Assembly (NCBI GenBank): GCA_963702425.1
Contig: CAVPCQ010000006.1
Coordinates: 320,001 to 384,000 of the forward strand
Direction of reading: 5' to 3'
Origin: an uncultured Acidobacteriota bacterium
Lineage (GTDB): Bacteria; Acidobacteriota; Polarisedimenticolia; J045
Length of the DNA: 64,000 bases
A model generated the notes under the pieces. It saw only the letters and a program-made list of their open reading frames with translations, searched no databases and was not told the origin of the DNA. Shown here piece by piece: positions 1-62,965 of the stretch. Numbering within the stretch: position 1 is the first letter of the stretch; every line of letters begins with the position of its first letter. Made by a program: the position numbers and the translations under genes.

Positions 1-1347
1 GAGCGGGTATCGCCCGGCCAGGGCGTAGGCGTTGCCGAGGTTGTTGTGGGCTCCGGCGTGCGCCGGGTTGACGCGGACCGCGGCCTCCCACGCCGCGATG
101 GCAGCCGGGAGGTTTCCGGATGAGGCCTCGAGCTGGCCGAGGTTGTAGAGGGCCGAGGCGTTCGTCGGGTCGGCGGCGACCATGCTCTCGTAGAGCTGCC
201 GATCGTCCAGCCAGACCTGCGCGCGGAGCGCTGAGCGAACTCCCAGGGCCGCGACGACGAGCAGGACGACCACCATCGCCAGGCGCAGGTGGCGTGCGGC
301 GAGCGCGTGCCAACCGGCCGCGAGCAGGAGCACGAAACCGAGCAGCGGGATGTAGAGGTAGCGCTCGGCCACCGGCGCGCTCGGGATCGGAACGAGATTC
401 GAACCGGGCAGCAGGGCGAGGAGCAGCCAGAGGCTCGCCGCGCGGAGCGGCTCGGGGGCGCGCCGCGCCACGGCCGCCCAGCCCAGCGCGCCGAGCGCGG
501 CCAGAACCGCGGCCAGCTTCGGGATCGAGAACGCCGTCGCCGCGGGCCCGTACGCGGCGTTGAGCGGGACCGGCCACGCCAGGATCCGCAGCGACTCGTA
601 GAGCGACCCCACGACCAGCCGCGCGTGCGCCGCAAGGTCGCCGGCCCCGGCCGCGGGCGCGACGGCGCCCAGCACCGCCGCACGCAGCAGCAGGTACCCG
701 CCGAGCAGCGCGAAGAAGAGGCCGAGCACGGGGGGGCGCGTCTTGAGGCGGGGATCCCGGGCGAGCAGAGCGAGACCGAGCAGGAACGGCGGCAGGACGA
801 CCGCCGGCTCCTTGCTCAGCAGCGCCGCGGCGAACAGCCCCAGCGCGGCCGCGGTCGCGAGCGGCGTCCGGCGCAGCAGCGCCAGCAGCGCCCCCAGCAG
901 ACCCGCGGCGCACAGCAGGTTGTTGCGCGCGGTGACGAAGGCGACGGCCTCGACCGTCGCCGGGTGGACGGCGAAGAGCAGCGCCGCCACGAAGCCGAGC
1001 CGCTCGTCCCCGAAGGCCCGCGCCACCAGCGCATAGAGCAGGAGCACGACGGCCGCGTGCAGCAGCAGGCTGGTCAGCCGCCACCAGAAGGGGTCGAGGC
1101 CGAAGAGCCGATAGTTTGCGAGAAAGCTCAGCGTCGTCAGTGGGCGGTAGTAGGGCGTGGCCCCGTGGTAGAGCCCGGTGTCGGACGAGGCGAGGATCGT
1201 CGCCGCGCTGCCGGACGCGGCGAAGAACGGGGCCTTGGCGACGATCAGCTCGGCGTCGTCCCAGACGAAGCGGCCGGCGAGGCTCGCGCCGTAGACCGCG
1301 AGGACGACGCCGATGAGGACGAGGACGGGGAGGGCCCGGCTGCGCAT
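1..1347 (-). CDS. TMTC-like membrane glycosyltransferase (GT-C) with C-terminal TPRs, copy 1; 3' end runs off the window
   Basis: Not in the ORF track because there is no stop in the window. Manual translation from ATG 1347: MRSRALPVLVLIGVVLAVYGASLAGRFVWDD..YYRPL..LLFAVHPATVEAVAFVTARNNLL..ERYLYIP..VWLDD..TPR (AHNNLGNAYA). Confidence 0.85.
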   Translation of the reverse strand, partial: MRSRALPVLVLIGVVLAVYGASLAGRFVWDDAELIVAKAPFFAASGSAATILASSDTGLYHGATPYYRPLTTLSFLANYRLFGLDPFWWRLTSLLLHAAVVLLLYALVARAFGDERLGFVAALLFAVHPATVEAVAFVTARNNLLCAAGLLGALLALLRRTPLATAAALGLFAAALLSKEPAVVLPPFLLGLALLARDPRLKTRPPVLGLFFALLGGYLLLRAAVLGAVAPAAGAGDLAAHARLVVGSLYESLRILAWPVPLNAAYGPAATAFSIPKLAAVLAALGALGWAAVARRAPEPLRAASLWLLLALLPGSNLVPIPSAPVAERYLYIPLLGFVLLLAAGWHALAARHLRLAMVVVLLVVAALGVRSALRAQVWLDDRQLYESMVAADPTNASALYNLGQLEASSGNLPAAIAAWEAAVRVNPAHAGAHNNLGNAYALAGRYPL

Positions 1348-1438
1348 CGGGCGCCATCTTCCCCGCCCTTCTGCGGCGGTGCCAGCACCGGACGGCCGCG
1401 CTCCTCGCATAGACTTCGCCTCGCACCCGGAGGCCGCC

Positions 1439-2752
1439 ATGAGCCGGTCCGTCCCCCGCCGCGCGTTCCTCGGTTCGATGCTCTACCCGGCCGCGCTGGC
1501 CCCGGTCGCGTTCAGCGCGACCGGGCTCGCGCGGGCCTTCGCCGCCGCCGCCGCGGCCGGCCCCGCGCCCGCCGGAGCCGATCCCCTCGCCGGCGACGAG
1601 GCCTTCTGGCGCGAGGTCCAGCAGGCCTTCGCCGTCGACCGCAGTCTGGTCAACCTCAACAACGGCGGCGTCAGCCCCTCGCCACGCCCCGTGCTCGACG
1701 CCCTGTTCCGCGACTGGAGCTACCAGAACACGCTCCCGCCCTACACGATGTGGCAGATCCTCGAGCCGCAGCGCGAAGGGGTCCGGCAGCAGCTCGCGCG
1801 GCTCGCCGGCGCGTCGCCGGACGAGGTCGCGCTGACCCGCAACGCCTCCGAGGCGCTCGAGACGGTCCAGCTGGGCCTGCCGCTGGCCGCGGGAGACGAG
1901 GTCCTGACCACGACCCAGGACTACCCGCGGATGATCACGACCTGGAAGCAGCGCGCGCGGCGCGAGGGGATCGTCCTGAAGCAGTTCCCTCTTCCCGTTC
2001 CGGCCTCCGACCCGGCCCGCGTCGTGGCGCTGTTCGAGGAGAACCTCACGCCGAAGACGAAGGCGATCCTGGTCTCGCACGTGATCTTCCTGACCGGCCA
2101 GGTCATGCCGGTGCGCGAGGTCGTGGCGCTCGGCCGCAGGCGCGGAATCCCCGTCATCGTCGACGGTGCGCACTCGTTCGCCCACCTCGACTTCACGCTG
2201 GCCGATCTCGACTGCGACTACTTCGGAACCAGCCTGCACAAGTGGCTCGCCGCGCCGCACGGGACCGGGATGCTCTTCGTACGGAAGAAACTGGTCCCCG
2301 GCCTCTGGCCGCTGATGCCCGCCGACGAGCAGCAGGACGGCGACATCCGGAAGTTCGAGGAGATCGGCACCCACCCGGCGGCGCCCTATCTGGCGATCGC
2401 CGACGCGATCGCCTTCCACCTGGCGATCGGGCAGCCGCGGAAGCTACAGCGCCTGGTCCACCTGCGCGACCTCTGGGTCGAGCCGCTGAGGGCACACCCG
2501 CAGGTCCGGCTGCACACTGCCCTGGGCCCCGGCCTTGCGGGTGGGATCGCGCTGTTCCAGGTCGAGGGGCTGGAGAGCGGCGAGCTGGTCAAGCAGCTCT
2601 GGGATCGGCACCGGATCTTCACCGTCGCGATCAAGCACGCCGACTTCGAGGGGGTCCGCGTCAGCCCGAGCGTCTACACGACGCCGGCCGAGGTGGAACG
2701 CTTCGTCGACGCCGTCCTGGCCGCCGCGGGAAGTGCACGGCGCGTGGTCTAG
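1439..2752 (+). CDS. Class V PLP aminotransferase (isopenicillin N epimerase / cysteine desulfurase-like) with Tat signal
   Basis: GGAGG RBS before ATG 1439; N-terminal PRRAFLG twin-arginine motif; NLNNGG, VDGAH and SLHKWL (PLP Lys) motifs. Confidence 0.85.
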   Translation: MSRSVPRRAFLGSMLYPAALAPVAFSATGLARAFAAAAAAGPAPAGADPLAGDEAFWREVQQAFAVDRSLVNLNNGGVSPSPRPVLDALFRDWSYQNTLPPYTMWQILEPQREGVRQQLARLAGASPDEVALTRNASEALETVQLGLPLAAGDEVLTTTQDYPRMITTWKQRARREGIVLKQFPLPVPASDPARVVALFEENLTPKTKAILVSHVIFLTGQVMPVREVVALGRRRGIPVIVDGAHSFAHLDFTLADLDCDYFGTSLHKWLAAPHGTGMLFVRKKLVPGLWPLMPADEQQDGDIRKFEEIGTHPAAPYLAIADAIAFHLAIGQPRKLQRLVHLRDLWVEPLRAHPQVRLHTALGPGLAGGIALFQVEGLESGELVKQLWDRHRIFTVAIKHADFEGVRVSPSVYTTPAEVERFVDAVLAAAGSARRVV

Positions 2753-2767
2753 CCTGATCCGGTCCAG

Positions 2768-3592
2768 TCAGCGCGTCGCCACGGCGGCCCCGGCCACGGA
2801 CATCGCGGACGCCGGCTGCGGCGCGGGTCGTCCGAGCGCCTGCTGGACGTCCCAGCGCGGGTGGCCGATGTCGTGGCACCCGAGGCACAGCGCCCGCCGG
2901 CTCTCCGTCGTCGTCAGGGCGCGGTGCGAACCGTAGACGCGGTGGCAGCTGGCGCAGCTCACGCGACCCTCGACGAGCCGGGCCGACGGGCCGATCTCTG
3001 CGGCGGCGCGGTAGACGCCGCCGCGCGTCGGCCGCGCCGAGCCGTAGTCGATGAGCGGGTGCGAGTGGCCGACCTCGATCTGCGGAGGCATCCCCGGGAA
3101 GTCGGGGACCAGTTCGGCCCCGCCGTGACAGGCCAGGCAGCGTTTCGAGAAGTCGTCGACCTCCGGCTCCGTCCCGTCCAGGCCGGCCGGCGCGGGTCCG
3201 GCGAGCCGAGGCCCGCCGTGCACGGTGTCGGGGTACTGCGCGTGCGGCGTGTCCCACGCGCCGCTGGCCGCGCGGTGGCAGCGCGCACAGAGCTCGGGGA
3301 CGGTCACCCGCAGGAAGAAATCGGCGTCGGCGGCCTCGCGCCCTGCAGGGCCGTGCCCGGCGTGGCAGGTCAGGCACGTGACGCGCCCCGCGTCGAGCGG
3401 CAGCCCGGCTGCATCGCCGGAGACTCGACCGAGCACAGGCACGTCGATCGGGTGGGTGGGCATGTCCGACTGGGGGGCGCGCACGTGGCAGGTGACGCAG
3501 AGCTCGCTGCCGTCCGACGCGAGAGCGGGAAGCGGGGCGAGGGCCAGGGCGCACAGCGCCCCGGCGACCGCCACGCGGCCAAGGGTGGCCAT
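2768..3592 (-). CDS. Exported multiheme (6 CxxCH) cytochrome c, doubled-CxxCH type
   Basis: Signal peptide; CVTCH, CLTCH, CARCH, CLACH, CASCH, CLGCH; THP/SHP distal-His motifs. Confidence 0.88.
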   Translation of the reverse strand: MATLGRVAVAGALCALALAPLPALASDGSELCVTCHVRAPQSDMPTHPIDVPVLGRVSGDAAGLPLDAGRVTCLTCHAGHGPAGREAADADFFLRVTVPELCARCHRAASGAWDTPHAQYPDTVHGGPRLAGPAPAGLDGTEPEVDDFSKRCLACHGGAELVPDFPGMPPQIEVGHSHPLIDYGSARPTRGGVYRAAAEIGPSARLVEGRVSCASCHRVYGSHRALTTTESRRALCLGCHDIGHPRWDVQQALGRPAPQPASAMSVAGAAVATR

Positions 3593-16827: not shown

Positions 16828-17949
16828 ATGCAGCACGGCACGCGAACCGAGCCCCCTGCGCCCCGCACCAGCCTCCCGCGCCAGGTCCTCGACGACATCC
16901 GCCACGGGAACCTGCGCCGCGAGGTCGGCCGCGACCTGACCGAGCTCTACGGCTTCTTCCTCGACGACGAGCAGCAGCAGCGTGCGGCGACGATGGCGCG
17001 TCCCAAGCGCTGGTTCATGGTCCCGTGGTGGGCCCTGAAGAGCCTGCTGCGCCGCCTCGCCGCGCCGCGCCGCGTGCTGCTCGTGCTCGCGCTGATCTTC
17101 GCCGTCCTGGGGGAGACGCGGATCGAGTCGCCGGACGGATCGATCTCGATCGGCGGCGACCTGCAGCCGCTGGCGATCCTGCTGCTGCTGGTGATCCTGA
17201 TGCTCGAGCTGAAGGACAAGCTGGTGGCGCGCGACGAGATCGAGGTCGCGCGGCAGGTCCAGTTGGCGCTCCTGCCGCGGCACCAGCCGGTCCTCGAGGG
17301 CTGGGACATCTGGCTCTACACCCGCCCGGCGAACGACGTCGGCGGCGACCTCGTCGACTTCCTCGAGCTGCCCGGACGGCGGCTCGCGCTCGCGCTGGGC
17401 GACGTCTCCGGCAAGGGGATGGGCGCGGCGCTCCTGATGGCGAAGCTGCAGGCGACGCTGCGCGCGCTGGTCCCGCTGGACGCCGCGCTCGCCGACCTGG
17501 GGGCGCACGTCAACCGGATCCTGTGCCGCGACAGCGTCGAGAACCGCTACGCGACCCTGCTCTACGCCGAGCTGGGCGCCGACTCGGGGAGCGTCCGGCT
17601 GCTCAACGCCGGGCACCTGCTGCCGCTGGTCGTGCGGGCCGGCGCGCACGAGCGACTGGCCCCGATGGCGATGCCGCTCGGGATGTTCCGCGAGGCGGTT
17701 TTCGTCGAGCAGGAGGTCGCGCTCGGCGGCGACGACATGCTCGTCCTCTGCTCCGACGGGCTGTCGGAGGCGCAGGACCCGACCGGCCAGTTCTTCGGCG
17801 AGGCGCGCCTGGTGGCGCTGACGCCGTCGCTCCGCGGGCTGGCGGCGGCGGCGGCGGGGGCCGTCCTGCTGCGGGAGATCGAGCGTTTCCTGGCCGGGGC
17901 GCGGCCGGCCGACGACCTCTCGCTGGCGATCGTACGCCGGCTCCCCTGA
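16828..17949 (+). CDS. Membrane-anchored PP2C/SpoIIE (RsbU-like) Ser/Thr phosphatase
   Basis: Two TM helices; VGGDLVD, LGDVSGKG, NAGH, SDGLSEA, DDLSL. Confidence 0.9.
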   Translation: MQHGTRTEPPAPRTSLPRQVLDDIRHGNLRREVGRDLTELYGFFLDDEQQQRAATMARPKRWFMVPWWALKSLLRRLAAPRRVLLVLALIFAVLGETRIESPDGSISIGGDLQPLAILLLLVILMLELKDKLVARDEIEVARQVQLALLPRHQPVLEGWDIWLYTRPANDVGGDLVDFLELPGRRLALALGDVSGKGMGAALLMAKLQATLRALVPLDAALADLGAHVNRILCRDSVENRYATLLYAELGADSGSVRLLNAGHLLPLVVRAGAHERLAPMAMPLGMFREAVFVEQEVALGGDDMLVLCSDGLSEAQDPTGQFFGEARLVALTPSLRGLAAAAAGAVLLREIERFLAGARPADDLSLAIVRRLP

Positions 17950-22521: not shown

Positions 22522-23094
22522 AGCCGCAAGAAGAACCTCGCGATGTCGCCCCGTGACCGCCGGATCGCATTTGCCCTCGTGGTGGGCATGCTCGTCGTCG
22601 GCGGCCTCCTCGTCTCGACCGGCATCTTCATCCCGGCCGGTCCGCCGACCCGCTCGCCCGGTGCGATCCCGGGGGTCAGCAACCCCGCCTCCCTGGCCCG
22701 GGCTCCGCGACTCGAGGGTTACCCAGCTCCCGACCGGGCGCTGGGACCGGACGACCTCAAGCCGGACCAGGTGACGGCACTCCCGGAATCCGCGCGCGGC
22801 GAGCTGCGCTGGTCGCTGGGCTGGACGGGGCGCCGCGACGGGCTCCAGGTGCGGCTGCTGCTCTTCGCCAACTCGGAAGCGGCCAGAGCGTCGCTGGCTG
22901 CCGCACCGGGCGACCGCCCGCTCGAGGGGCTCGGCGAGGCGGCCGTCCGGCGCGGGTCAGACCGGATCCTGTTCGTCCGCGGCAGCGCCCTCGGGGTCGT
23001 CTCCGCCGCCGGGGCCCCGCCTCCCGAGGCCCTGTCGAACGCCGCACACGAACTCGACGACGCGCTGGCCCGGAGCTCGCTGGTCCTTCCCTAG
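22519..23094 (+). CDS. Hypothetical single-pass membrane protein
   Basis: Basic N-terminus then a hydrophobic helix; fills the gap between divergent and convergent genes. Confidence 0.65.
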   Translation: MSRKKNLAMSPRDRRIAFALVVGMLVVGGLLVSTGIFIPAGPPTRSPGAIPGVSNPASLARAPRLEGYPAPDRALGPDDLKPDQVTALPESARGELRWSLGWTGRRDGLQVRLLLFANSEAARASLAAAPGDRPLEGLGEAAVRRGSDRILFVRGSALGVVSAAGAPPPEALSNAAHELDDALARSSLVLP

Positions 23095-25002
23095 CGCTCC
23101 TTCGTTTTCTTGTGCAGGCGGTACGCGCGAATCTTCGTCGAGAGCGTGCGGCGGTCGAGCCCGGTCGCCTGCGCCGTGTCCTGCACCCGGCCGCGGTGGC
23201 GTTCCAGCGCGCTCCGGAAGTAGTGCTCTTCGAAGCGGTCGCGTGCCGTTCGCCAGGGGAGTGCGAGCAGTTCGTGCCACGGACCGTGCGGGGCGGCCGG
23301 CGGTGAAGTCGGTACAAGGTCGCCGGGCAGGTCGTCGAGGTCCACGATCCCGTCGCGGTCGAGCACCACCGCCCGCTCGATCACATTCCGCAGCTCGCGC
23401 ACGTTCCCGGGCCAGGCGTAGTCCGACAGCACCTTCACGGCGGCGGCGGAGAGCGCGCCGACGCGCTGGCCGTCCGGCCGCAGGAAGTGCTCGAGGAAGT
23501 GGGTGGCCAGCGGAACGACGTCGCCCGGGCGGTCGCACAGCGACGGCAGCACGACCTCGATCACGCGCAGCCGGTAGTAGAGGTCCTCGCGGAACGTGCC
23601 CTCCGCGACCATCTGCTCGAGCGGACGGTGAGTGGCGGCGACCAGCCGGACGTCGACGCGGCAGCGGCTGCCGCCGACGTGCGTCACCTCGCCGGTCTCG
23701 ATCACGCGCAGGATCTTGGCCTGGGCGGCAAGCGGCAGGTCGCCGATCTCGTCCAGGAAGAGCGTGCCGCCGTCGGCTTGCTCGAAGGCGCCGGCGCGCG
23801 CGCGGTCGGCGCCGGTGTAGGACCCGCGATCCGCTCCGAAGAGCTCGGCCTCGACGAGGCCCTCCGGCAGCGCCGCGCCGTTGAGGGCGACGAATGGGTG
23901 CTCGCGGCGCGGGCCGGCGCGGTGAGCGAGCCGCGCCAGCTCCTCCTTGCCGGTCCCGCTCGGTCCGCGCAGCAGGATCGTCGCGCGCGAGGGCGCGGCG
24001 CGGCGCACCGCCTCGACCGCGGCCTGGAAGGTCGGATCGTCCCCGATCAGCGGCGGCTCCGAGCCGGCCGGCGCCTCGGCTCCGCCGCGGCCGCGCCGCA
24101 GGAGCCGCTCGGCGGCCTCGCGGCGGCGGCGCTCGCGATCGAGCGTCAGCGCGCCCTCGACGAGGACGCCGGCGATCGCGCCCAGGCGCGTCGCGGCCGC
24201 CAACGCGCCGCCGCCCGGGACCCGCGTCCCCTCGAGGTACGCGACCGCCGCGAAGTCGGCGTGCGCGCCGCGCAGCGGCACCGCGGTGAGGACCGTGCCC
24301 GCAGCGTATTGATCGAGCGCGGTCTTCTCGTCGGCGTGTACGCGCAGCACGCTGGCCGGGCTCGCGGACCAGGCCTCGGCGCGCCCGCGCGCCGCCTCGA
24401 GAAAGCTCCGCGACAGGCAGACCGGACCGCTGCCGCCGCGCGAGCCGCGCAGCACCCAGCGCTCGCCCGCGAGCGTCACGAGGTAGCCGCGCTCGGCGTC
24501 GACCAGCGCGAGCAGCTCGGCCAGCAACCGCGGAGAAGATCTCGCGCCCCGCGCCGATCGCGGCGATCCGCTCGAGGGCGTCGAGCAGCGGCGGCTCCGT
24601 CCGTGCGGTCGGATCGGGAGCGTGGGCGTCGGCGAGCGTCGCGCCGAGCGGCTCCTCCTCGTCGAGCCACACCGCCTGATCGAGCGCCATCGCGGGAACG
24701 AAGCGGTAGGGTCCGACCAGCACGCGGTCGCCGGGCTGCAGCACGACCGACTCGTCCGGATCGAGGCGGCGCACAGAGGCACCGCGCTCGAGCCATGTCC
24801 CGTTGCGGCTCGAGAGGTCGCGCACGACGATCTGTTCGCCGTCCCAGATGACCTCGGCGTGGCGTGCCGTAACGCGCTGGTCGCCGAGGACGACGTCGCA
24901 GTTCCGCGAGCGCCCGAGCACCCGGGGACGCCGATCGCTCAGCTCGATCGCCTCACCCGAACCGGCGTGCCCCCCGCCGCCGACCATCCAGAGGGTGGAC
25001 AT
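23091..25002 (-). CDS. FHA-GAF-AAA+-HTH sigma54-dependent enhancer-binding protein (frameshift ~24530)
   Basis: GGGAGG RBS before ATG 25002; FHA LGRS..VTARHA..DLSSRNGT; GAF-like middle; GPSGTGKE, ELFG..GSYTGA, GGTLFLDEIG, FREDLYYRL, WPGNVREL; Fis-type HTH. Confidence 0.88.
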
Positions 25003-25027
25003 CGGAGCCCTCCCTGCCGTGAATGCG

Positions 25028-25072
25028 GGAAGCATACTTCCCGTCCCGCCCCGCAAGGGGAAGTACGCTTCC
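25028..25072. promoter_or_regulatory. Two palindromic GGAAG-N4-CTTCC sites (candidate enhancer/UAS)
   Basis: GGAAGcataCTTCC 25028-25041 and GGAAGtacgCTTCC 25059-25072; centres 31 bp apart. Confidence 0.7.
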
Positions 25073-25102
25073 TCTTTCGGGGCAGAAGGGACCGGAAATG
25101 GC

Positions 25103-25118
25103 TGGCGCGCCATTTGCA
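25103..25118 (+). promoter_or_regulatory. sigma54 (-24/-12) promoter
   Basis: TGGCGCGCCATTTGCA matches TGGCACG-N4-TTGCW with one mismatch; exact GG-N10-GC spacing; divergent from an EBP gene. Confidence 0.75.
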
Positions 25119-25128
25119 CTAGGAGTGG

Positions 25129-25253
25129 GCGCTTGGCCTGTTCTCGGGCGGGCACGAGCGGCGCAAGGCGGGCCCGATGTCACGTCATGGGGCAAGGGGG
25201 TGGCCGCCGGGGGGAGTGGGGGGAGTTCGCCGCTGGTGCCCGCTCTTCTTTTC
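25129..25253 (+). ncRNA. Putative sigma54-dependent structured small RNA
   Basis: 18-bp closing stem (25146-25163 with 25228-25245; one G-U pair, one mismatch) followed by TTCTTTTC; G-tract-rich loop; no credible + strand CDS follows. Confidence 0.5.
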
Positions 25254-25278
25254 CCCCCGCCCCGGTCGAGAGGTCGGT

Positions 25279-25962
25279 TCAGCGCGTCGGGCGCGACCGC
25301 TCCGCCACCGGCCTTTCTGCCGCCCGGCCCTGCTCCGGCTCACTGCCGCCCACGAGCTGAAGGAAGCACTCGATCCGCGTCGCCTCGGCCGCGTCGCGCT
25401 GCGCCGACCGGTGCGCGGCGATCCGGCGCAGACCGAGGACGGCCTTCTGATCGCCCGGATCGCGCAGCACGAGCGCCGCGAGCAGCTTGACCGCCAGCGG
25501 CCACAGCGACGATTCGGCCAGCGCGCCCCCCAGCGCGAGCAGCTGCGCCCGCGACGCCCCGAGCGCCGTCGGCTCCGCGTCGAGCGCTTCGAGGAGCTCC
25601 GCCGCGAGCAGTCCCTGACGGGCCCGGAAGCAGAGCGGGAGCGCTTCGCGCGCGACCGCCACGGCAGCGGTCTCCTGCCCGGCGTTCCGGAGGGACAGGC
25701 AGAGCGCGTGGAGTACCCAGGGGTCCGGGGCGAAAGACGAGGAGACGGCCAGCAGTTCCGCCAGGGCGCCGTCGGGATCCTCGGCGGCCCGGGAGCGGGC
25801 CAGGGCCGCTCGCCGCGCCCCGTCCGGGAGGATCGGGCGCGGGAGCTCCTCGGGCGGCTCGCCGCAGAGCTCGCCGGACGAACGGGTCGACAGGCCCGCC
25901 GCGGGGCGCTCGGCGCGCGTGGCCGCCTCCCCGGCCTCCGGCTGCCTCCGGCGCCAGCGCAT
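25279..25962 (-). CDS. Hypothetical helical/TPR-like protein
   Basis: GGGAGAG upstream of ATG 25962; amphipathic Ala/Leu-rich helices (DPWVLHALCLSL, DPGDQKAVLGLRRIA). Confidence 0.55.
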   Translation of the reverse strand: MRWRRRQPEAGEAATRAERPAAGLSTRSSGELCGEPPEELPRPILPDGARRAALARSRAAEDPDGALAELLAVSSSFAPDPWVLHALCLSLRNAGQETAAVAVAREALPLCFRARQGLLAAELLEALDAEPTALGASRAQLLALGGALAESSLWPLAVKLLAALVLRDPGDQKAVLGLRRIAAHRSAQRDAAEATRIECFLQLVGGSEPEQGRAAERPVAERSRPTR

Positions 25963-26102
25963 GCCGCTCTCCCGGGGCGCTCCCCGCCCCCGGGAGAAGG
26001 TCGCCGCGGAGGCCGGCGCTGTCGACCCGATCCGATTGGCAGGGTTCAGAAAAGTCGGGGAAACTGACTTCGTAGCCGTATTATTCCGTGGGGGGTAGAT
26101 CG

Positions 26103-29100
26103 ATGTCCGTGCCGAGACGTTGCACGAGGCGTCATGGGCGCCGAATTCCTCGGGTGCCGGTGCTGGCTGCCCTGGCGTTTTCGGCGCTGGCCGGCCTGAC
26201 GCCGGCCGCGTGGTCCGGTTCGGTCCAGCCCGAACTGGCGGCTGCCGTGATGCGGTCGCGCGCCGCGGACCGCGTCTCCGTCGTCGTTCGGCTGGAGCCG
26301 GCACCTCACGCTGCGCCGCTTCGCCTGCCGGAGAGCCGCGCCGAGCTCGTGACGCTGCGTCGCGCCCAGACCGAGACGTCGGCCGCGGCCGTGCTCGCGA
26401 TGCTGCGCCGCGCCGAGCGCGACGGGCAGGCCGAAGCGTGCGAGGTGCTGTGGGTCGCGCACGCGGTCACCGCGCGCATCGCACCCGAGCTGGTGCCGCG
26501 GCTCGCCGGACTCCCCGGCGTGCTCGAGGTCCGTCTCGACCGCCCCGTCGGCCCCGACGACGGCGACGGCGACACTTCCGGCCCCAGCCCCACCGCGCCG
26601 CGCACGGCGGCGATCCTGAAGCTGAACGTCGACGACGTCTGGGCCGCGGGCTACACCGGCCGCCACGTGCTGGTCGCCATCATCGACGACGGAGTGAACA
26701 TCAACCACCCCGATCTGGCCGACCACCTCTGGGCGAACCCCGGTGAGATCGCGGGCGACGGGATCGACAACGACGGCAATGGCAAGATCGACGACGTCCG
26801 CGGCTGGAACTTCGGCAGCAGCAACGCCAGCCTGACCGACCTGCAGAACCACGGCACGCCGGTGGCGGGCCTGGCGCTGGGCGACGGGACGGCCGGATCG
26901 CAGACCGGGGTCGCCCCGGATGCGGAGCTGATGGTCCTCAAGCGCGGTTCCACCGAGTCGACGATGTGGGCGGCCAGCCAGTACGCGATCGAGAAGGGGG
27001 CGCAGATCGTGCTCCAGGCCCGCTCGGTCCGGCGCTACGATCCGGCGGGCGTCCCCGACTACGGCAGTTGGCGTACCGTCACCGACAACGAGCTGGCCGC
27101 CGGCGTCATCCGCGTCAACTCGGCGGGGAACTGCTTCGGCTGCACCGAAGGCGCGCTCCCCGAGAACCCGCCCTACCAGGTCAACGCGCCGGCCAACGCG
27201 CCCCCGCCGCTGCTGCACGCCGCGCAGACGCTGATCGGCGGCGTCTCGTCGGTGATCGCCGTCGGCAACGTCGATCTCGGCGACAACATCGTCGGCACCA
27301 GCCGGCGCGGCCCGTCGGAGTGGATCGACTTGCAGGCCTCCGACCCGTCGTATCTCTACCCGATGCCGCTCGCCTACCGGGACTACCCGTACGCCGGCGG
27401 CGCGCAGCAGGGGCTGCTCAAGCCCGACGTCGCCTGCTACGGCGAGGGCTCGACCGCACCGTCGGCATTCTGGGAGACCGGGCCGGACTACAACGTCGGG
27501 ACGTTCAACGGCACGAGCGGCGCCGCCGGCCACGCCGCCGGCGTCGTCGCGCTGCTGCTCGAGGCCAAGCCGGACGCCACCCCGGCGCAGCTCGCCCAGG
27601 CCCTCTTCGGCACGGCGCGCGACCGCGGCGCACCGGGCTTCGACCCGTTCTACGGCGAGGGGATCGTCGACGCCTACGCTGCGCTGGCGGCGATCGGCGC
27701 GCCCTGTTTCGGTTTCGGCGGCGATGCCGACGGCGACGCGGTCTGCCAGGCGGCAGACAACTGCCCGACGGTCGTGAACCCGCTGCAGGCCAACCTCGAC
27801 GGCGACACGCTGGGCGATGCCTGCGACCCCGACCAGGACGGCGACGGCTTCAACGGCGGGACCGGCAACCCGGACTGCGACGATCGCAACGCCGCGATCA
27901 AACCGACCGCGGCCGAGCTGTGCGATCTCGTCGACAACGACTGCGACGCCTCCGCCGACGAGAACCCCGAGGCGGGCGCGAACAGCTGCGCCGACGGGAA
28001 CATCTGCACCGCCGACCTGTGCGGAGCCGGTGCGACCTGCACCGCCGCCGCGAGCGGCGCGTGCGGCATCACCGGTTCGATGACGTACTACCGGATCTCC
28101 GATGCCGACCGCAACGGCACCGCGGACGACCCGGCGGAGCTGACGGGCGCCGATCCGGTGCCGGGAGTGGCGATCGACCTCGTCGGCCTCGGCTCGCTGC
28201 CGGACGCGATCACGGGGAGCGATGGCAGTTTCTCGCTCCCGGCGCAGTTCGGCAACGTGACGCTGGTCCCGCTCGACCGGGTGAACGCGCCGCGGGCCGA
28301 GGGGGCCGCACCCGGCTCGATCAGCGGGTTCGACGCCGCGGCCGTGGCCAAGCACGCCGTCGGGCTCACGACGCTGACCAACCTGCAGCAGATCGCGGCC
28401 GACGTGTCGGAGAACGGGACGGTCAGCTCCTTCGACGCCTCGCTGATCGCGCAGTACGCGGTCGGGCTGATCGACTTCTTCCCCGTCCGCACGAGCCTCG
28501 GTTCGGACTGGGCGTTCGTTCGCTGCAACGGCGGACTGCCCGGAAACTGCCCGGCCTGGCCACCGCACCCGCCGACCGCGTCGTATGCCTGGACCCCGAT
28601 CGGGCAGCCCGAGTCCGCACCCTTCTTCGCCATCCTCTATGGCGACGTCACGGGAAATTGGCCGCTGGTCGCGGGGTTGGATGGCGGCGTGTTCACGGCG
28701 CAGGCGGCCCCTTCCAGGGACTCGACGAACGCCGCGAATCGGAGGCCGCGCGGCGCCTCGCCGGTGCTGCGCTCCGGGAGCGACCCCGCGCGGCTGGTCC
28801 GCATCGCCGGCCCGACCCGGGTCGGACCGCGACTCTACCGCGTCGTGCTCGGCCTCAAGCAGGCCGACGGCATCACGGCCCTCGATCTGTTCGCACCCGC
28901 CCCGAAGATGCCCGGGCTCCGGATCGTGTCGGTGCGCCCGGTCGGCCTGGCAGCCGCGTGGTCGGCCGCGCTCGGCCCGCTCGAGGCTGCCGGGCAGCGG
29001 ATCGCGCTGTACGGTGCCGGCCCCCTCGCCGGGCGCGGCGCGGTGCTCGAGCTCGTTTTCGAGGCGAGCGGCCCGCCGGAACGGGGACGCCTTCCGTTCC

Positions 29101-29144
29101 CGATCGAAGCCTCGGCCAACGAAGGCGCGATCCCGATCCGCTGA
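26103..29144 (+). CDS. Secreted S8 subtilisin-like protease with TSP3-like/Cys-Asp repeats, dockerin-like and cohesin-like C-terminal domains
   Basis: Catalytic IIDDG, HGTPVAG, NGTSGA; DGDAVC..DNCP..NPLQ.N.DGD..GDACD; DCDD..AELCD.VDNDCD; AADVSENGTVSSFDASLIAQY; YGDVTGNW. Confidence 0.9.
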   Translation: MSVPRRCTRRHGRRIPRVPVLAALAFSALAGLTPAAWSGSVQPELAAAVMRSRAADRVSVVVRLEPAPHAAPLRLPESRAELVTLRRAQTETSAAAVLAMLRRAERDGQAEACEVLWVAHAVTARIAPELVPRLAGLPGVLEVRLDRPVGPDDGDGDTSGPSPTAPRTAAILKLNVDDVWAAGYTGRHVLVAIIDDGVNINHPDLADHLWANPGEIAGDGIDNDGNGKIDDVRGWNFGSSNASLTDLQNHGTPVAGLALGDGTAGSQTGVAPDAELMVLKRGSTESTMWAASQYAIEKGAQIVLQARSVRRYDPAGVPDYGSWRTVTDNELAAGVIRVNSAGNCFGCTEGALPENPPYQVNAPANAPPPLLHAAQTLIGGVSSVIAVGNVDLGDNIVGTSRRGPSEWIDLQASDPSYLYPMPLAYRDYPYAGGAQQGLLKPDVACYGEGSTAPSAFWETGPDYNVGTFNGTSGAAGHAAGVVALLLEAKPDATPAQLAQALFGTARDRGAPGFDPFYGEGIVDAYAALAAIGAPCFGFGGDADGDAVCQAADNCPTVVNPLQANLDGDTLGDACDPDQDGDGFNGGTGNPDCDDRNAAIKPTAAELCDLVDNDCDASADENPEAGANSCADGNICTADLCGAGATCTAAASGACGITGSMTYYRISDADRNGTADDPAELTGADPVPGVAIDLVGLGSLPDAITGSDGSFSLPAQFGNVTLVPLDRVNAPRAEGAAPGSISGFDAAAVAKHAVGLTTLTNLQQIAADVSENGTVSSFDASLIAQYAVGLIDFFPVRTSLGSDWAFVRCNGGLPGNCPAWPPHPPTASYAWTPIGQPESAPFFAILYGDVTGNWPLVAGLDGGVFTAQAAPSRDSTNAANRRPRGASPVLRSGSDPARLVRIAGPTRVGPRLYRVVLGLKQADGITALDLFAPAPKMPGLRIVSVRPVGLAAAWSAALGPLEAAGQRIALYGAGPLAGRGAVLELVFEASGPPERGRLPFPIEASANEGAIPIR

Positions 29145-29283: not shown

Positions 29284-29299
29284 GGGCACGCCGGTTGCT
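29284..29299 (+). promoter_or_regulatory. sigma54 (-24/-12) promoter
   Basis: GGGCACGCCGGTTGCT (GGCACG-N4-TTGCT), about 40 bp upstream of the RBS and ATG at 29337. Confidence 0.68.
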
Positions 29300-29336
29300 T
29301 CCTATCAATCCGCTGCGCCCCACAGGAGGGAGAGTC

Positions 29337-29771
29337 ATGAAGACCACGCGAGTCGCGCTGGGCCTGCTGATCGCCGCGGTCCTGCTGATCTCCGTCGTTC
29401 CCAGCGCCCACGCGACGTCGATCAGCGCGCGCGTGGAGGGCCTGTTCGTCGTCGGCGACCAGATCTTCGACGGGGGCGACGTCGTCATCCGTTCGGTCGG
29501 AAGCGGTCTCCTCGCGATCCTGATCAACGGCCGTCAGGTCGCCCTCCTTCACCGCCAGGACTTCGGAGCCCGCCCGCCCCACTCGGTTCCGTATCTCGAG
29601 TTCCGGATTGACGACCAGGGTCTGCCGCACCTCGCCGCGGTCCGCTTCCGCTCCGAGCGGGGCGAGAGCACGGCGCTGATTGCGCTCAGGCCGGCCGCCT
29701 TGTCGCCGGGGCTGCTCACGCTCCCCTACCGCTTCCCGCAGTCCGAGCCGACGCTGCGCGCCGCGCGTTAG
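29337..29771 (+). CDS. Hypothetical secreted protein
   Basis: GGAGGGAG RBS; Sec signal MKTTRVALGLLIAAVLLISVVPSAHA. Confidence 0.72.
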   Translation: MKTTRVALGLLIAAVLLISVVPSAHATSISARVEGLFVVGDQIFDGGDVVIRSVGSGLLAILINGRQVALLHRQDFGARPPHSVPYLEFRIDDQGLPHLAAVRFRSERGESTALIALRPAALSPGLLTLPYRFPQSEPTLRAAR

Positions 29772-41455: not shown

Positions 41456-41532
<77 letters not shown>

Positions 41533-41554
41533 TCAAGTCGTTCAAAGCGGCGGG

Positions 41555-41583
41555 ATTGTTGGGGGCACACCCCGGTGTGTCAA
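41555..41583 (-). promoter_or_regulatory. sigma70 promoter of tRNA-fMet copy 1 (variant -10)
   Basis: TTGACA-17bp-AACAAT. Confidence 0.65.
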
Positions 41584-41627
41584 CTTCCGTGCCCGCCTGC
41601 TCCTACAATGCGCTGTCCGGCCGCGGT

Positions 41628-42019
41628 TTGGTCCGGCCGCCGGGGGACGCCACGCCACCGACCGGATCCAGCACATCCAGCACCGCTTCGGCCCTGGCGT
41701 CGCTCGCACTGCTGGGGATCGTCGTCGGTTCGGGCTGCGGGCGGGAGCGCTCCGCCGCGCAACCCGGGCGAGAGGTCGTGCTGAAGCGGGGCACCACGTT
41801 CGCCGTCCGGCTGCATGGTGACCTCCCCCGCGGGAGCGCGCGGGTCGGGCAGCCGGTCGAAGGCACCGTCCTCTCCGCGCTCGCTGGGGACGACGGCTCG
41901 ATCCCGTGCGCCGGCTGGACGGCGATCGGTACGGTCGCGCGGATCGACCCTCCGGCGCGGGGGGGGGCGACGGAGACGGCGCTGCTGCTCTTCCGCGAGC
42001 TGCGCTCCCCCCAAGGGCA
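41628..42019 (+). pseudogene. 3'-truncated copy of the lipoprotein gene at 46949-47542
   Basis: Breaks at 42019/42020 into mscS sequence. Confidence 0.8.

Positions 42020-46776: not shown

Positions 46777-46798
<22 letters not shown>
46553..46798 (+). pseudogene. Possible C-terminal remnant of a large serine recombinase overlapping the tRNA 3' end
   Basis: Reading frame ..RLALELVVERIDLKP..RSFGSGGGI* ends inside the antisense tRNA acceptor/T arm; no catalytic domain visible. Confidence 0.35.
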
Positions 46799-46853
<55 letters not shown>

Positions 46854-46875
46854 TCAAGTCGTTCAAAGCGGCGGG

Positions 46876-46904
46876 ATTGTAGGGGGCACACCCCGGCGTG
46901 TCAA
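46876..46904 (-). promoter_or_regulatory. sigma70 promoter of tRNA-fMet copy 2
   Basis: TTGACA-17bp-TACAAT followed by a GC-rich discriminator (CCCGCCGC). Confidence 0.8.
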
Positions 46905-46948
46905 CTTCCGTGCCCGCCTGCTCCTACAATGCGCTGTCCGGCCGCGGT

Positions 46949-47542
46949 TTGGTCCGGCCGCCGGGGGACGCCACGCGACCGACCGGATCCAGCACATCCT
47001 GCACCGCTTCGGCCCTGGCGTCGCTCGCACTGCTGGGGATCGTCGTCGGTTCGGGCTGCGGGCGGGAGCGCTCCGCCGCGCAACCCGGGCGAGAGGTCGT
47101 GCTGAAGCGGGGCACCACGTTCGCCGTCCGGCTGCATGGTGACCTCCCCCGCGGGAGCGCGCGGGTCGGACAGCCGGTCGAAGGCACGGTCCTCTCCGCG
47201 CTCGCTGGGGACGACGGCTCGATCCCCTGCACCGGCTGGACGGCGATCGGTACGGTCGCGCGGATCGACCCTCCGGCGCGGGGGGAGTCGATAGAGACGG
47301 CGCTGCTGCTCTTCCGCGAGCTGCGCTCCCCCGAAGGGCAGACGATCGGGATCCGCGCCGAGGCGACGCTCGTGCCGCAGCGGGCGGCGAGCCGTTCGCT
47401 CGGGATCGTCGCCGGCGGCGCGGTGGCCGGCGCCATCCTCGACCGGGAACTCGACAAGTCGGGCCGTCCGCCTCCCGGGCCGGGTCCCGAGCTCGTCGCG
47501 CGCCTCGTCGTCGAACTGCGGCTTCCGCGGACCGGCTACTGA
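46949..47542 (+). CDS. Hypothetical lipoprotein (TrbI/VirB10-like beta fold); start uncertain
   Basis: TACAAT at 46925; lipobox-like GSGC; GTTFAVRL..VGQPVEGTV..GTVARI; glycine-zipper GGAVAGAIL; ends in LPRTGY. Confidence 0.6.
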   Translation: MVRPPGDATRPTGSSTSCTASALASLALLGIVVGSGCGRERSAAQPGREVVLKRGTTFAVRLHGDLPRGSARVGQPVEGTVLSALAGDDGSIPCTGWTAIGTVARIDPPARGESIETALLLFRELRSPEGQTIGIRAEATLVPQRAASRSLGIVAGGAVAGAILDRELDKSGRPPPGPGPELVARLVVELRLPRTGY

Positions 47543-61387: not shown

Positions 61388-61418
61388 GTGGTGCGGGGGG
61401 CGCGAGAGCGCGCGGGGG

Positions 61419-61499
61419 GCGCGGGAGCCGCGAGGGGCCCCCTGGCGAGTGGGTCGCAGGCTCCAACACTCGCCAGGGGGCCCCTCGCGGCTCCCGCGC
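61419..61499. repeat. Perfect 33-bp inverted repeat with 15-nt loop GGTCGCAGGCTCCAA
   Basis: Arms 61419-61451 and 61467-61499 are exact reverse complements. Confidence 0.93.
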
Positions 61500-61520
61500 G
61501 GCGCACCGCCACTGAAAAAA

Positions 61521-61652
61521 TGGGAGAGAAGTCTGTACAGCGACCGGGACGCGTTCGGTCGGTGTGGGAGAGAAGCCTGTACGGCGACCGGGACGCGTTC
61601 GGTCGGTGTGGGAGAGAAGCCTGTACGGCGACCGGGACGCGTTCGGTCGGTG
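61521..61652. repeat. Tandem array of 3 x 44 bp, each with an internal hairpin
   Basis: TGGGAGAGAAG(T/C)CTGTAC(A/G)GCGACCGGGACGCGTTCGGTCGGTG at 61521, 61565 and 61609; no spacers. Confidence 0.95.
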
Positions 61653-61691
61653 TAAAGATTCTTCTTTTTCTCTTTTTCCGGGAGCGGGATT

Positions 61692-61786
61692 GGCGGCCGG
61701 CTGCGGGCGGGGAATGTCCCCCCGGCGAGTGTTGGAGCCTGCGACCCACTCGCCGGGGGGACATTCCCCGCCCGCGGCCGGCCGCC
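61692..61786. repeat. 40-bp inverted repeat (one T-G wobble) with the same 15-nt loop in opposite orientation
   Basis: Arms 61692-61731 and 61747-61786; loop TTGGAGCCTGCGACC. Confidence 0.93.
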
Positions 61787-62965
61787 CTAGCGCGCCCCCC
61801 TCGCCGTTCCGAACCACGCCGACGGGTCCTCGGGCCTGCCGTCGACGCGCACCTCCAGGTACAAGTACGGCCCGCGCACGGAACCGGTGTCGCCGACGCG
61901 GCCGAGGCTCTCGCCCTGCGCGATCGGGTCGCCGGCCTGCACGATCGCGGCCGAAAGGTGGCCGTAGACCGTGTGCACCGCGCTGCCGTGGTCGAGCACC
62001 ACGACGAGGCCGTAGCCCTTCAGCCAGCCGCTCCACGCGACGCGCGCGTCGAACGGTGCGCGGACCACGGCCCCGAACGGCGCCGCGAGGTCCCAGCCCG
62101 GGTGCGGCAGGCGCGTGCCGAAGCGCGGATCGACCCGGTCGCCGAACGGCTCGTCGATCGTCCCTTCCTCGACCGGCAGGCGGAACACCCCTCTGAATCG
62201 CCGGGCGTCGAGGCGCACGGGGTCGGCGTCGGGAACGCCGGCGAGCACCGACTCCAGGCTGCCGCGCGCGCGCTCCAGCTCGACGACCGCCTGCTCGCGC
62301 ACCGCCGTCTGCTGCCGCATGTCGGCCAGCAGGTCCTGGCGCGCGCGGATCGACTGGTCGAGCGCGGCCCGCGCGGCGAGCGCGTCGTCCTGCAGCCGCG
62401 CGACCTCCGCCTGGCGGGTCCGCTGTTCGGCCTCGAGCGCCGCGAGTCGGGCCTCGCTGTCCCGGATCGCGCCGACCTCGCCCTTGTAGCGCCAGGCCAG
62501 CTCGTGCGTGCTACGCAGGCCGGCGCCCAGGGACTGGGTGTCGGCCGCCCCGAGCACCGGCTTGAGCCGGCCGAGCGGCCCCGCCTGCTGGAGCAGCCGC
62601 GCGATCGTCGACAGCCGGACCCGTCCCGCGTCCAGCCGCTCCTGCGCCGCGGCGCGTTCTGCCGCCGTCGCGGCCAGCGCCGACTCGGCCTGCGTCCGCT
62701 CCAGCGTCAGCTCCTCGATCCGCGCGTCCTGGAAGCGCGCCTCCGCGGCCAGCGCGTCGAGCCGCGCCAGCACGCCCGCCGAGTCCTTGTCGAGGCGCTC
62801 CCGCTCCGCCGACAGCCGGGCGACTTCCTCGCGCACCCGCTGCAGCTGGCGCTCGGGGTTCTCGTCGACCGGCCCGGGCCCGGGGCCGGCGCCGAACGCG
62901 GCGGCGACTGCCGCCGCGAGCACGAGGGCCGCGGCGGGCAGGCGACGCGCAGGGCCCGCTACCAG
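61787..62965 (-). CDS. EnvC-like murein hydrolase activator (coiled coil + M23 domain); start uncertain
   Basis: Signal peptide, long coiled coil, HPGWDL, GYGLVVVLDHG..TVYGHL, VGDTG..GPYLYLEVR (HxH degenerate, as in EnvC). Confidence 0.82.
   Translation of the reverse strand: MVAGPARRLPAAALVLAAAVAAAFGAGPGPGPVDENPERQLQRVREEVARLSAERERLDKDSAGVLARLDALAAEARFQDARIEELTLERTQAESALAATAAERAAAQERLDAGRVRLSTIARLLQQAGPLGRLKPVLGAADTQSLGAGLRSTHELAWRYKGEVGAIRDSEARLAALEAEQRTRQAEVARLQDDALAARAALDQSIRARQDLLADMRQQTAVREQAVVELERARGSLESVLAGVPDADPVRLDARRFRGVFRLPVEEGTIDEPFGDRVDPRFGTRLPHPGWDLAAPFGAVVRAPFDARVAWSGWLKGYGLVVVLDHGSAVHTVYGHLSAAIVQAGDPIAQGESLGRVGDTGSVRGPYLYLEVRVDGRPEDPSAWFGTARGAR

Follow-up and report, generated by a model that had tools for sequence, protein, structure and literature searches.

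The Vibrio gene qrr1 adjoins luxO and is transcribed divergently from it, and in the CbrB-CrcZ and GlrR-GlmY systems, too, a small RNA (sRNA) that depends on sigma-54 and an enhancer-binding protein (EBP) adjoins the gene of its two-component activator. The available portions of the published accounts describe the activation of qrr1 by phosphorylated LuxO (PMC3843225) and place pxr beside the sigma-54-dependent regulator gene nla19, as an intergenic gene of ∼108 nt with several stem-loops and an apparent sigma-54 promoter with enhancer sites (PMC5568312). Here, we analyze a locus of similar design in a 64,000-nucleotide stretch of DNA, referred to as the window, from an uncultured Acidobacteriota bacterium (assembly GCA_963702425.1, contig CAVPCQ010000006.1, positions 320,001 to 384,000 of the forward strand; 72.7% G+C overall). 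A gene for an NtrC-family EBP is followed, on its divergent side, by two palindromes, a predicted sigma-54 promoter, and a candidate RNA that ends just short of a convergent gene. In the reading that we prefer, and to which we give slightly less than an even chance, the EBP-dependent promoter makes a hairpin-terminated, G-rich noncoding RNA of ∼122 to 125 nt. The regulatory half of this proposal (the EBP, the predicted pair of upstream activating sequences [UASs], and the −24/−12 element) is well supported, and the sRNA half is plausible but unproven.

The palindrome GGAAG-N4-CTTCC occurs exactly twice on the two strands of the 64-kb window, with 0.07 matches expected, and two or more matches were found in none of 100 shuffled sequences. 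The two copies are those that an initial annotation of this DNA had singled out: GGAAGCATACTTCC at 25028-25041, the core of the longer UAS1 palindrome, and UAS2, with 31 bp from start to start. UAS1 is located 26 nt upstream of the EBP ATG, between that start codon and any upstream promoter. The −24/−12 element, also noted at the outset, begins 31 nt downstream of UAS2 and points away from the EBP gene, which is the only one of its kind in the region. It is the single TGGC-N7-TTGCW match in the window (0.33 expected; at least one match in 29 of 100 shuffles). Matches to a relaxed pattern that tolerates up to two mismatches are no commoner than chance (11 found, 12.5 expected), and, for this reason, only the exact match carries weight. 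The predicted transcription start and the UAS centers were derived from the usual −24/−12 numbering. Elsewhere in the window, a sigma-54-like site with one mismatch, GGGCACGCCGGTTGCT, lies at 29284-29299 on the + strand, just past the peptidase gene described below and at the start of an open reading frame (ORF) at 29295-29771; such one-mismatch sites are no commoner in the window than chance would provide.

Relatives of the locus were gathered by a genome scan with the AAA+/helix-turn-helix (HTH) part of the activator as the query, and 80 loci were kept. Only two are close, L001 (93% amino acid identity; an uncultured Acidobacteriota bacterium, contig CAWDCL010000004.1) and L002 (87%). Since the L002 contig stops inside the activator gene, L001 is the sole relative for comparison of the upstream DNA. 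The remaining 78 loci were ruled out as comparators because they are AAA+ paralogues at ≤50% identity; they lack the FHA domain, the GAF-like domain, the TPR-like gene, and a related peptidase, except for one weak 77-residue match in L008. Six further EBP orthologues (P0126 to P0131) were compared as proteins, giving an alignment of eight sequences with L001 and the window, and gene adjacency in further relatives was judged from the shared longest contig of each protein cluster. The initial annotation had proposed conservation in relatives as a check on the UAS pair and the promoter, and both are retained in the one relative for which the upstream DNA is available. L001 keeps UAS1 at 17 of 18 positions, keeps UAS2 in position and at the same 31-bp spacing with one half-site changed, and carries at the same place the promoter TGGCCCGCCGTTTGCT (TGGC-N7-TTGCT), in which the GG/GC dinucleotides are preserved. 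The surrounding identity is 79/100 across 25003-25102 and 19/27 across 25119-25145. The element thus combines the conserved GG/GC, the TGGC-N7-TTGC spacing, retention in a relative, and a position downstream of the UAS pair.

The predicted product of the activator gene contains the domains expected of an NtrC-family protein. In addition to the matches listed in Table 1, AAA_lid_14 was recognized (E 2.4e-22), and the AAA+ part matches the sequences of NtrC1, NifA, ZraR, FleQ, and PspF in the PDB at E 1e-54 to 4e-71. All seven sequences of the alignment that cover the sigma-54 contact loop in frame have GSYTGA there, not GAFTGA; a natural GAYTGA loop, with Y at the F position, is described as active in HrpS in the available portion of that report (PMC3105312). 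A Fis-type HTH closes the protein, and the EBP would be expected to bind the palindromes through it. At the N terminus, the FHA domain announced by the initial annotation is borne out by a Pfam match, and its region matches the sequences of GarA/Rv1827 FHA proteins in the PDB. FHA domains carry the signature GR … (S/T)xxH … SxNG. The corresponding residues are seen here as GR, T-A-R-H, and S-R-N-G, and S-A-R-H replaces T-A-R-H in four of the six other orthologues. Phosphothreonine is the presumptive input of the activator. The GAF domain named in the same annotation fared less well, since Pfam gave no match in the middle domain even at E values up to 10; the AlphaFold model of this domain is unusable (mean predicted local distance difference test score, 43.3), and all 10 of the best named ESM Atlas clusters carry GAF, with a best score of 0.96, a language-model similarity that serves as a lead only. 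The assignment to GAF is probable but unproven.

The activator had been taken as a single ORF, which it is not in this assembly. The FHA frame runs from the ATG at 25002 down to ∼24530, the AAA+/HTH frame continues down to 23091, and the GC content by codon position changes frame between ∼24480 and ∼24540. The orthologue in L001 is a single ORF of 633 amino acids (aa) (L001 3521..5422), relative to which the window carries a 1-nt insertion. This frameshift may be an assembly error or may mark a pseudogene. In the source annotation, this gene is apparently represented by P0132 (478 aa, no FHA domain), which, judged by its length, appears to start just after the frameshift site. Six of the eight EBP sequences compared are intact (L001, P0126, P0127, P0129, P0130, and P0131), and P0128 is frameshifted at a different place from the window. 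The intact orthologues are 72 to 79% identical to L001 across the N-terminal 310 residues; over the middle domain, L001 is 93% identical to the window, compared to 78 to 84% for the six other orthologues, which makes L001 the closest relative of the window at the EBP. The label "self-contained module" therefore needs qualifying: the EBP gene, the UAS pair, and the promoter do stand side by side, but the EBP gene is frameshifted in this assembly. A gene for a PP2C/SpoIIE-family phosphatase is located at 16828-17946 (PF07228, E 1e-45), ∼5 kb from the activator gene; although not adjacent, the phosphatase could belong to the same Ser/Thr phospho-signaling as the activator. The 16 neighboring ORFs and 8 locus ORFs scanned showed no Ser/Thr kinase.

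Downstream of the promoter, the candidate RNA would comprise a conserved 5′ single-stranded block (25129-25139), a long outer stem, an inner hairpin, the G-run interior, and a U-rich tail. The arms of the stem pair over all 18 positions claimed for them, with 16 Watson-Crick pairs, one G·U pair, and one G-G mismatch; the inverted-repeat finder reported arms of 16 nt that are 94% complementary, with 64 nt between them. Repeats of this quality (16-nt arms, at most one mismatch, and a loop of 3 to 120 nt) form six clusters in the window, compared to a mean of 0.85 in 20 first-order Markov simulations. The tail reported at the end of the stem is likewise present, and it is one of 15 T-rich tracts (at least 6 T in 8 nt) on both strands of the window, i.e., in 128 kb of strand. 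A G+C-rich stem followed directly by a U tract is thus in place. The G-run motif, whose capability of forming a quadruplex is predicted from its four runs and short loops, has no second instance on either strand of the window, compared to a mean of 0.13 in Markov simulations, and its G-runs are kept in L001, where the differences fall in the loops between them.

The comparison with L001 also bears on the structure and strand of the RNA. The stem is identical at 34 of 36 positions, compared to 127 of 154 (82.5%) third-codon positions of the FHA region, which serve as a proxy for synonymous sites (binomial P of ∼0.04 by our own arithmetic). The RNAalifold consensus of the two sequences consists of the long stem and the inner hairpin. 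Among its 29 pairs, 26 are invariant, two show one-sided changes (G·U to A-U and G·U to G-C), and one shows a two-sided change, so that all three varying pairs retain pairing; one change in the 5′ arm turns a G·U into an A-U. G·U pairs occur at four pair positions and are workable on the + strand only; on the − strand they would be A-C mismatches, which mildly favors an RNA read from the + strand. Alignable similarity to L001 ends just past the T tract, and on the EBP side, over 6.1 kb, the window and L001 differ by only four single-base insertions or deletions (indels).

The gene that ends 26 nt beyond the 3′ end of the candidate RNA was correctly recognized as convergent. Codon-position GC supports a real gene on the − strand, its ATG at 25962 is preceded by GGGAG, and the TPR-like protein has 122 representative homologues at E values up to 1e-3, 66 of them at up to 1e-10. 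Weak TPR matches were obtained for 5 of the 16 homologues tested, and the source annotation apparently lists this gene as P0133. The same family also makes up the C-terminal part of proteins of ∼470 to 560 aa (among P0020 to P0123); the N-terminal part of the 11 longer members tested (342 to 608 aa) gave no Pfam match.

Table 1. Coordinates of the features at and around the candidate RNA, as positions in the 64,000-nt window
Feature	Position	Strand	Description	Evidence
Sigma-54 EBP gene	23091..25002	-	Two frames here; ∼637 codons if read through	Translations, codon-position GC, Pfam
C-terminal Fis-type HTH	23121..23237	-	Predicted DNA binding	PF02954 (HTH_8), E 1e-5
AAA+ sigma-54 interaction domain	23553..24050	-		PF00158 (Sigma54_activat), E 2.7e-62
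Middle sensory domain, GAF-like (unconfirmed)	24090..24521	-		ESM Atlas similarity
1-nt insertion (frameshift) relative to L001	24526..24530	-		Pairwise alignments
FHA domain	24712..24921	-	Residues 28-97 of the N-terminal frame	Pfam PF00498, E 6.3e-16
UAS1	25026..25043		Perfect 18-bp palindrome; center at about −94 from predicted start	
UAS2	25059..25072		GGAAGTACGCTTCC, 14-bp palindrome; center at about −63	
Predicted sigma-54 −24/−12 promoter	25103..25118	+	TGGCGCGCCATTTGCA; predicted start ∼25129	
Predicted noncoding RNA	25129..25253	+	∼122 to 125 nt	Consensus fold, L001 identity, no conserved ORF
Long stem, 5′ arm	25146..25163	+	16/18 positions identical in L001	
G-runs	25189..25223	+	Four runs of at least 4 G, loops of 3, 8, and 3 nt; G-quadruplex-capable; the window's only such motif	
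Long stem, 3′ arm	25228..25245	+	18/18 positions identical in L001	
T-rich tract, terminator-like tail	25244..25253	+	TCTTCTTTTC, directly 3′ of the stem	
Convergent gene	25279..25962	-	227-aa TPR-like helical protein; absent from L001	Codon-position GC, homologues
Sigma-70-like promoter match	26080..26109	-	CGGACA-18-AATAAT, 9/12; toward TPR-like gene, in L001 toward EBP gene	
S8 (subtilase) peptidase gene	26103..29144	+	1013 aa; MopE-type metal-binding and dockerin-like motifs; alternative promoter target	Pfam

Under the proposed mechanism, the EBP would bind as dimers to the two palindromes, its sensory domains would release the AAA+ ring, and the released EBP would remodel the sigma-54 RNA polymerase held at the promoter. 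Transcription would start near 25129 and end at the long hairpin and U-rich tail near 25250, and the product might then have a regulatory role comparable to that of the RNAs of luxO-qrr1 and nla19-pxr. A search for complements of the conserved 5′ block gave six sites, the block's own site included, compared to 3.0 expected, and so provides no lead to a target. The more specific proposal, that a sigma-54 activator of the Acidobacteriota, gated by phosphothreonine through its FHA domain, controls a regulatory RNA of ∼125 nt that is G-quadruplex-capable and belongs to a new family, is one that we regard as possible and somewhat unlikely. In that case, since the RNA would be antisense to the leader of the activator transcript, there may in addition be feedback of the RNA on the activator.

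Several results weigh against a noncoding RNA of this kind. The RNA region (25129-25247) is identical to L001 at 104 of 119 positions (87.4%), which is only slightly above the third-codon proxy. The T tract is interrupted, and it is weaker in L001. A scan of 24800-26300 for canonical terminators returned no sites, because the 64-nt interior exceeds the 3- to 8-nt loop limit of the scan; the structure is accordingly not a compact hairpin. The claim that the region folds stands as far as the rare inverted repeat is concerned, but the fold energy is no better than that of shuffled sequences (z, +0.57 for the window and +0.90 for L001), and in the minimum free energy fold of the window the long stem is missing and the pyrimidine tail is paired to the G-runs. 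Thermodynamic z-scores are uninformative on both strands. For covariation, which the initial annotation had suggested examining, two sequences provide no power: the observed score was reached by 249 of 500 shuffles. At gathering scores, Rfam matched only two tRNAs in the whole window, with no Qrr, Pxr, GlmY/Z, or CrcZ; at a permissive E value, 24500-25800 gave eight subthreshold chance matches, the best at 24.1 bits, where the gathering score is 82. When the window and L001 sequences were made into a covariance model, a search of the window and the 80 loci recovered only these two training sequences, the next best match scoring 15.8 bits (E 0.83). The earlier statement that no RNA family could be recognized therefore holds, and the sRNA claim retains a rare hairpin with a T tract and the absence of a conserved ORF, set against the missing Rfam match and the unremarkable fold z-scores. 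The frameshift in the EBP gene, if real, would leave the module inactive in this genome. Finally, the gene order in L001 favors a different target for the promoter, as does that on a longer contig described below.

In L001, window positions 25248-26032 (∼785 bp) are replaced by ∼51 bp (L001 3225-3275), the TPR-like gene is gone, and the promoter stands ∼245 nt upstream of the ATG of the S8 peptidase gene on the same strand, with nothing between them. This is the layout of an ordinary divergent EBP-target gene pair, the commonest arrangement for such genes, and the chief alternative to an sRNA follows from it: the RNA would be a structured 5′ leader, possibly an attenuator, of the peptidase mRNA, the peptidase gene would be the real target of the EBP, and in the window the TPR-like gene would lie in between. 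A conserved linkage is suggested by one EBP orthologue and one peptidase orthologue (P0127 and P0142, the latter 76% identical) whose longest contigs have the same length, 336,676 bp; among the TPR-like homologues tabulated, none shows this length. The relaxed pattern scan found no second sigma-54 promoter near the peptidase start. In the window, however, the peptidase ATG is ∼975 nt from the predicted start, with a real head-on gene in between, the strong hairpin and T tract are in the way, and a conserved AT-rich block just upstream of the peptidase start could be the gene's own promoter.

The history of the region also bears on the peptidase leader. Peptidase orthologues are 76 to 81% identical, and one of them (P0140, 81%) shares a longest contig of 5,822 bp with a TPR-like homologue (P0134, 70%), so the two genes are almost certainly neighbors on a single small contig. 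Therefore, the layout of the window seems to be present in a second lineage and that of L001 to be a deletion, which suggests that the TPR-like/peptidase pair is the older state and that L001 lost the TPR-like gene. Because L001 is nearest to the window at the EBP, the TPR-like gene would have been present in their common ancestor and lost in L001, provided that L001 is also nearer than the genome of P0140. Aligned to the intact 1,013-aa protein of the window, the L001 peptidase gene (114-3154) falls into four segments in two alternating frames, with three frame switches, and is either a pseudogene or affected by local assembly errors. The TPR-like/peptidase side thus looks decayed in L001 and the EBP gene, operator, promoter, and hairpin are intact, which argues for a promoter output independent of the peptidase gene; this argument is weakened in that the indels of L001 could be assembly errors as well. 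Taking both sides together, we consider a peptidase leader unlikely; if it were correct, the locus would be an ordinary EBP-target pair, of interest only for gene gain or loss in a leader. By eye, in a three-way alignment, the indel junction of L001 resembles both window ends (∼25253-25277 and ∼25975-26000), and imperfect direct repeats of ∼20 bp seem to flank the 785-bp indel, although they are absent from the list of the repeat finder. These repeats were set aside as a discriminator, as they do not tell an insertion from a deletion.

It is also conceivable, if improbable, that the locus is a decaying or inactive relic, in which the EBP gene is a pseudogene here, the peptidase gene is a pseudogene in L001, and the promoter, UASs, and hairpin persist through recent divergence. 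The frameshift in the window, the separate one in P0128, the broken peptidase gene and missing TPR-like gene of L001, and an RNA region not clearly more conserved than the synonymous-site proxy are all compatible with decay. Single-base indels may instead be assembly errors, most of the EBP sequences are intact, and the promoter GG/GC, UAS1, and the stem are better kept than the DNA around them.

About as improbable, the sigma-54 transcript could act in cis, as an antisense to a − strand RNA that enters the EBP gene from the TPR-like gene or, in L001, from the sigma-70-like promoter. The active EBP would in this case influence its own expression, either by antisense pairing or by collision of the two transcription events, and UAS-bound EBP could itself act as a roadblock, given that UAS1 separates any upstream promoter from the start codon of the EBP gene. 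The TPR-like and EBP genes lie on the same strand, 276 nt apart, and no terminator-like site was found on that strand. The sole sigma-70-like match in 24800-26300 reads in this direction and is kept in L001; its overlap with the peptidase start codon and ribosome-binding site could by itself explain this conservation. The − strand transcript is hypothetical, and the G·U pairs and T tract indicate a folded + strand RNA, a feature that fits action in cis and in trans alike.

That the promoter drives a + strand protein, the alternative that the initial annotation had named as its own refutation, is very improbable: the ATG at 25177 is kept in L001 and opens a long frame in the window (296 aa, 25177..26067), but this ORF mirrors the real − strand gene, has no Pfam match, and fits the codon-position GC less well than that gene does, and as a small peptide it fares no better, since the window and L001 products differ completely after two codons because of an indel, with the L001 frame stopping after 51 codons; both forms were rejected.

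Most of the neighboring genes in the window are metabolic or housekeeping genes. ARAGORN places a 90-nt tRNA-Arg at 29028-29117, within the 3′-terminal part of the peptidase ORF; the Rfam tRNA model gave no match there, so this call is probably spurious. A 300-nt direct repeat, 99% identical between 41456-41755 and 46777-47076 (5,321 bp apart), consists of a tRNA-Met (CAT) and a 223-nt flank; the copies bracket MscS-like, sortase, and sulfatase genes, and the sulfatase part (∼43.5-46.5 kb) is 63 to 65% G+C compared to 72.7% overall. The region may have arisen by duplication or by insertion at a tRNA gene. Farther along, 61388-61790 contains two hairpins, at 61419-61499 (33-nt arms, 100% complementary) and 61692-61786 (40-nt arms, 98%), whose 15-nt loops and adjoining arm ends are mutually reverse complementary and which bracket three tandem units of ∼45 nt (∼61513-61655) and a long T-rich tract (61659-61678). 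It has no Rfam match and looks like a structured noncoding or mobile element.

If the sRNA proposal is true, the locus would hold the first sigma-54-dependent sRNA described in the Acidobacteriota, and this phylum, in which hardly any riboregulators have been characterized, would gain a defined RNA candidate together with its promoter and operator pair. The literature searched, whose coverage left out most subscription journals, contained nothing relevant on a sigma-54-dependent sRNA in Acidobacteria or on one with a G-quadruplex. The G-run interior would also allow the idea of a quadruplex within an sRNA or terminator of a bacterium to be put to the test.

Compared to known systems, the locus shares with ordinary divergent EBP/target pairs a common intergenic region in which the UAS overlaps the region upstream of the EBP gene, and the L001 layout fits such pairs exactly; the window differs in having a head-on gene and a hairpin with a T tract between the promoter and the peptidase gene. 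CrcZ and GlmY, which carry defined motifs, work by sequestering proteins or as decoys, and the EBPs of these systems are response regulators. The resemblance to nla19-pxr of Myxococcus and its relatives, as far as the available portion of that source describes it, lies in an intergenic sRNA gene beside a sigma-54 regulator gene with an apparent sigma-54 promoter (PMC5568312). The two systems differ in that pxr is located downstream of nla19 and the candidate RNA is divergent from the EBP gene, in that Rfam gives no Pxr match here, and in that Pxr has experimental support and the candidate RNA is a prediction from sequence. With LuxO-Qrr1, the locus has in common an NtrC-family EBP, a sigma-54 promoter (predicted here), and a short RNA product (a regulatory RNA of ∼100 nt for Qrr1, a candidate here), judging by the available portions of the sources (PMC3843225, PMC10162802). 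It differs in phylum, in the lack of an Rfam Qrr match, and in a candidate RNA that is G-rich with a long closing stem; in addition, LuxO receives its signal from a phosphorelay through a receiver domain, in place of which the EBP of the window has an FHA and a GAF-like domain. Should the proposal hold, the design of an EBP gene beside its sigma-54-dependent sRNA, as in Qrr, Pxr, CrcZ, and GlmY, would extend to the Acidobacteriota, with an input from Ser/Thr kinase signaling through the FHA domain rather than from a two-component phosphorelay.

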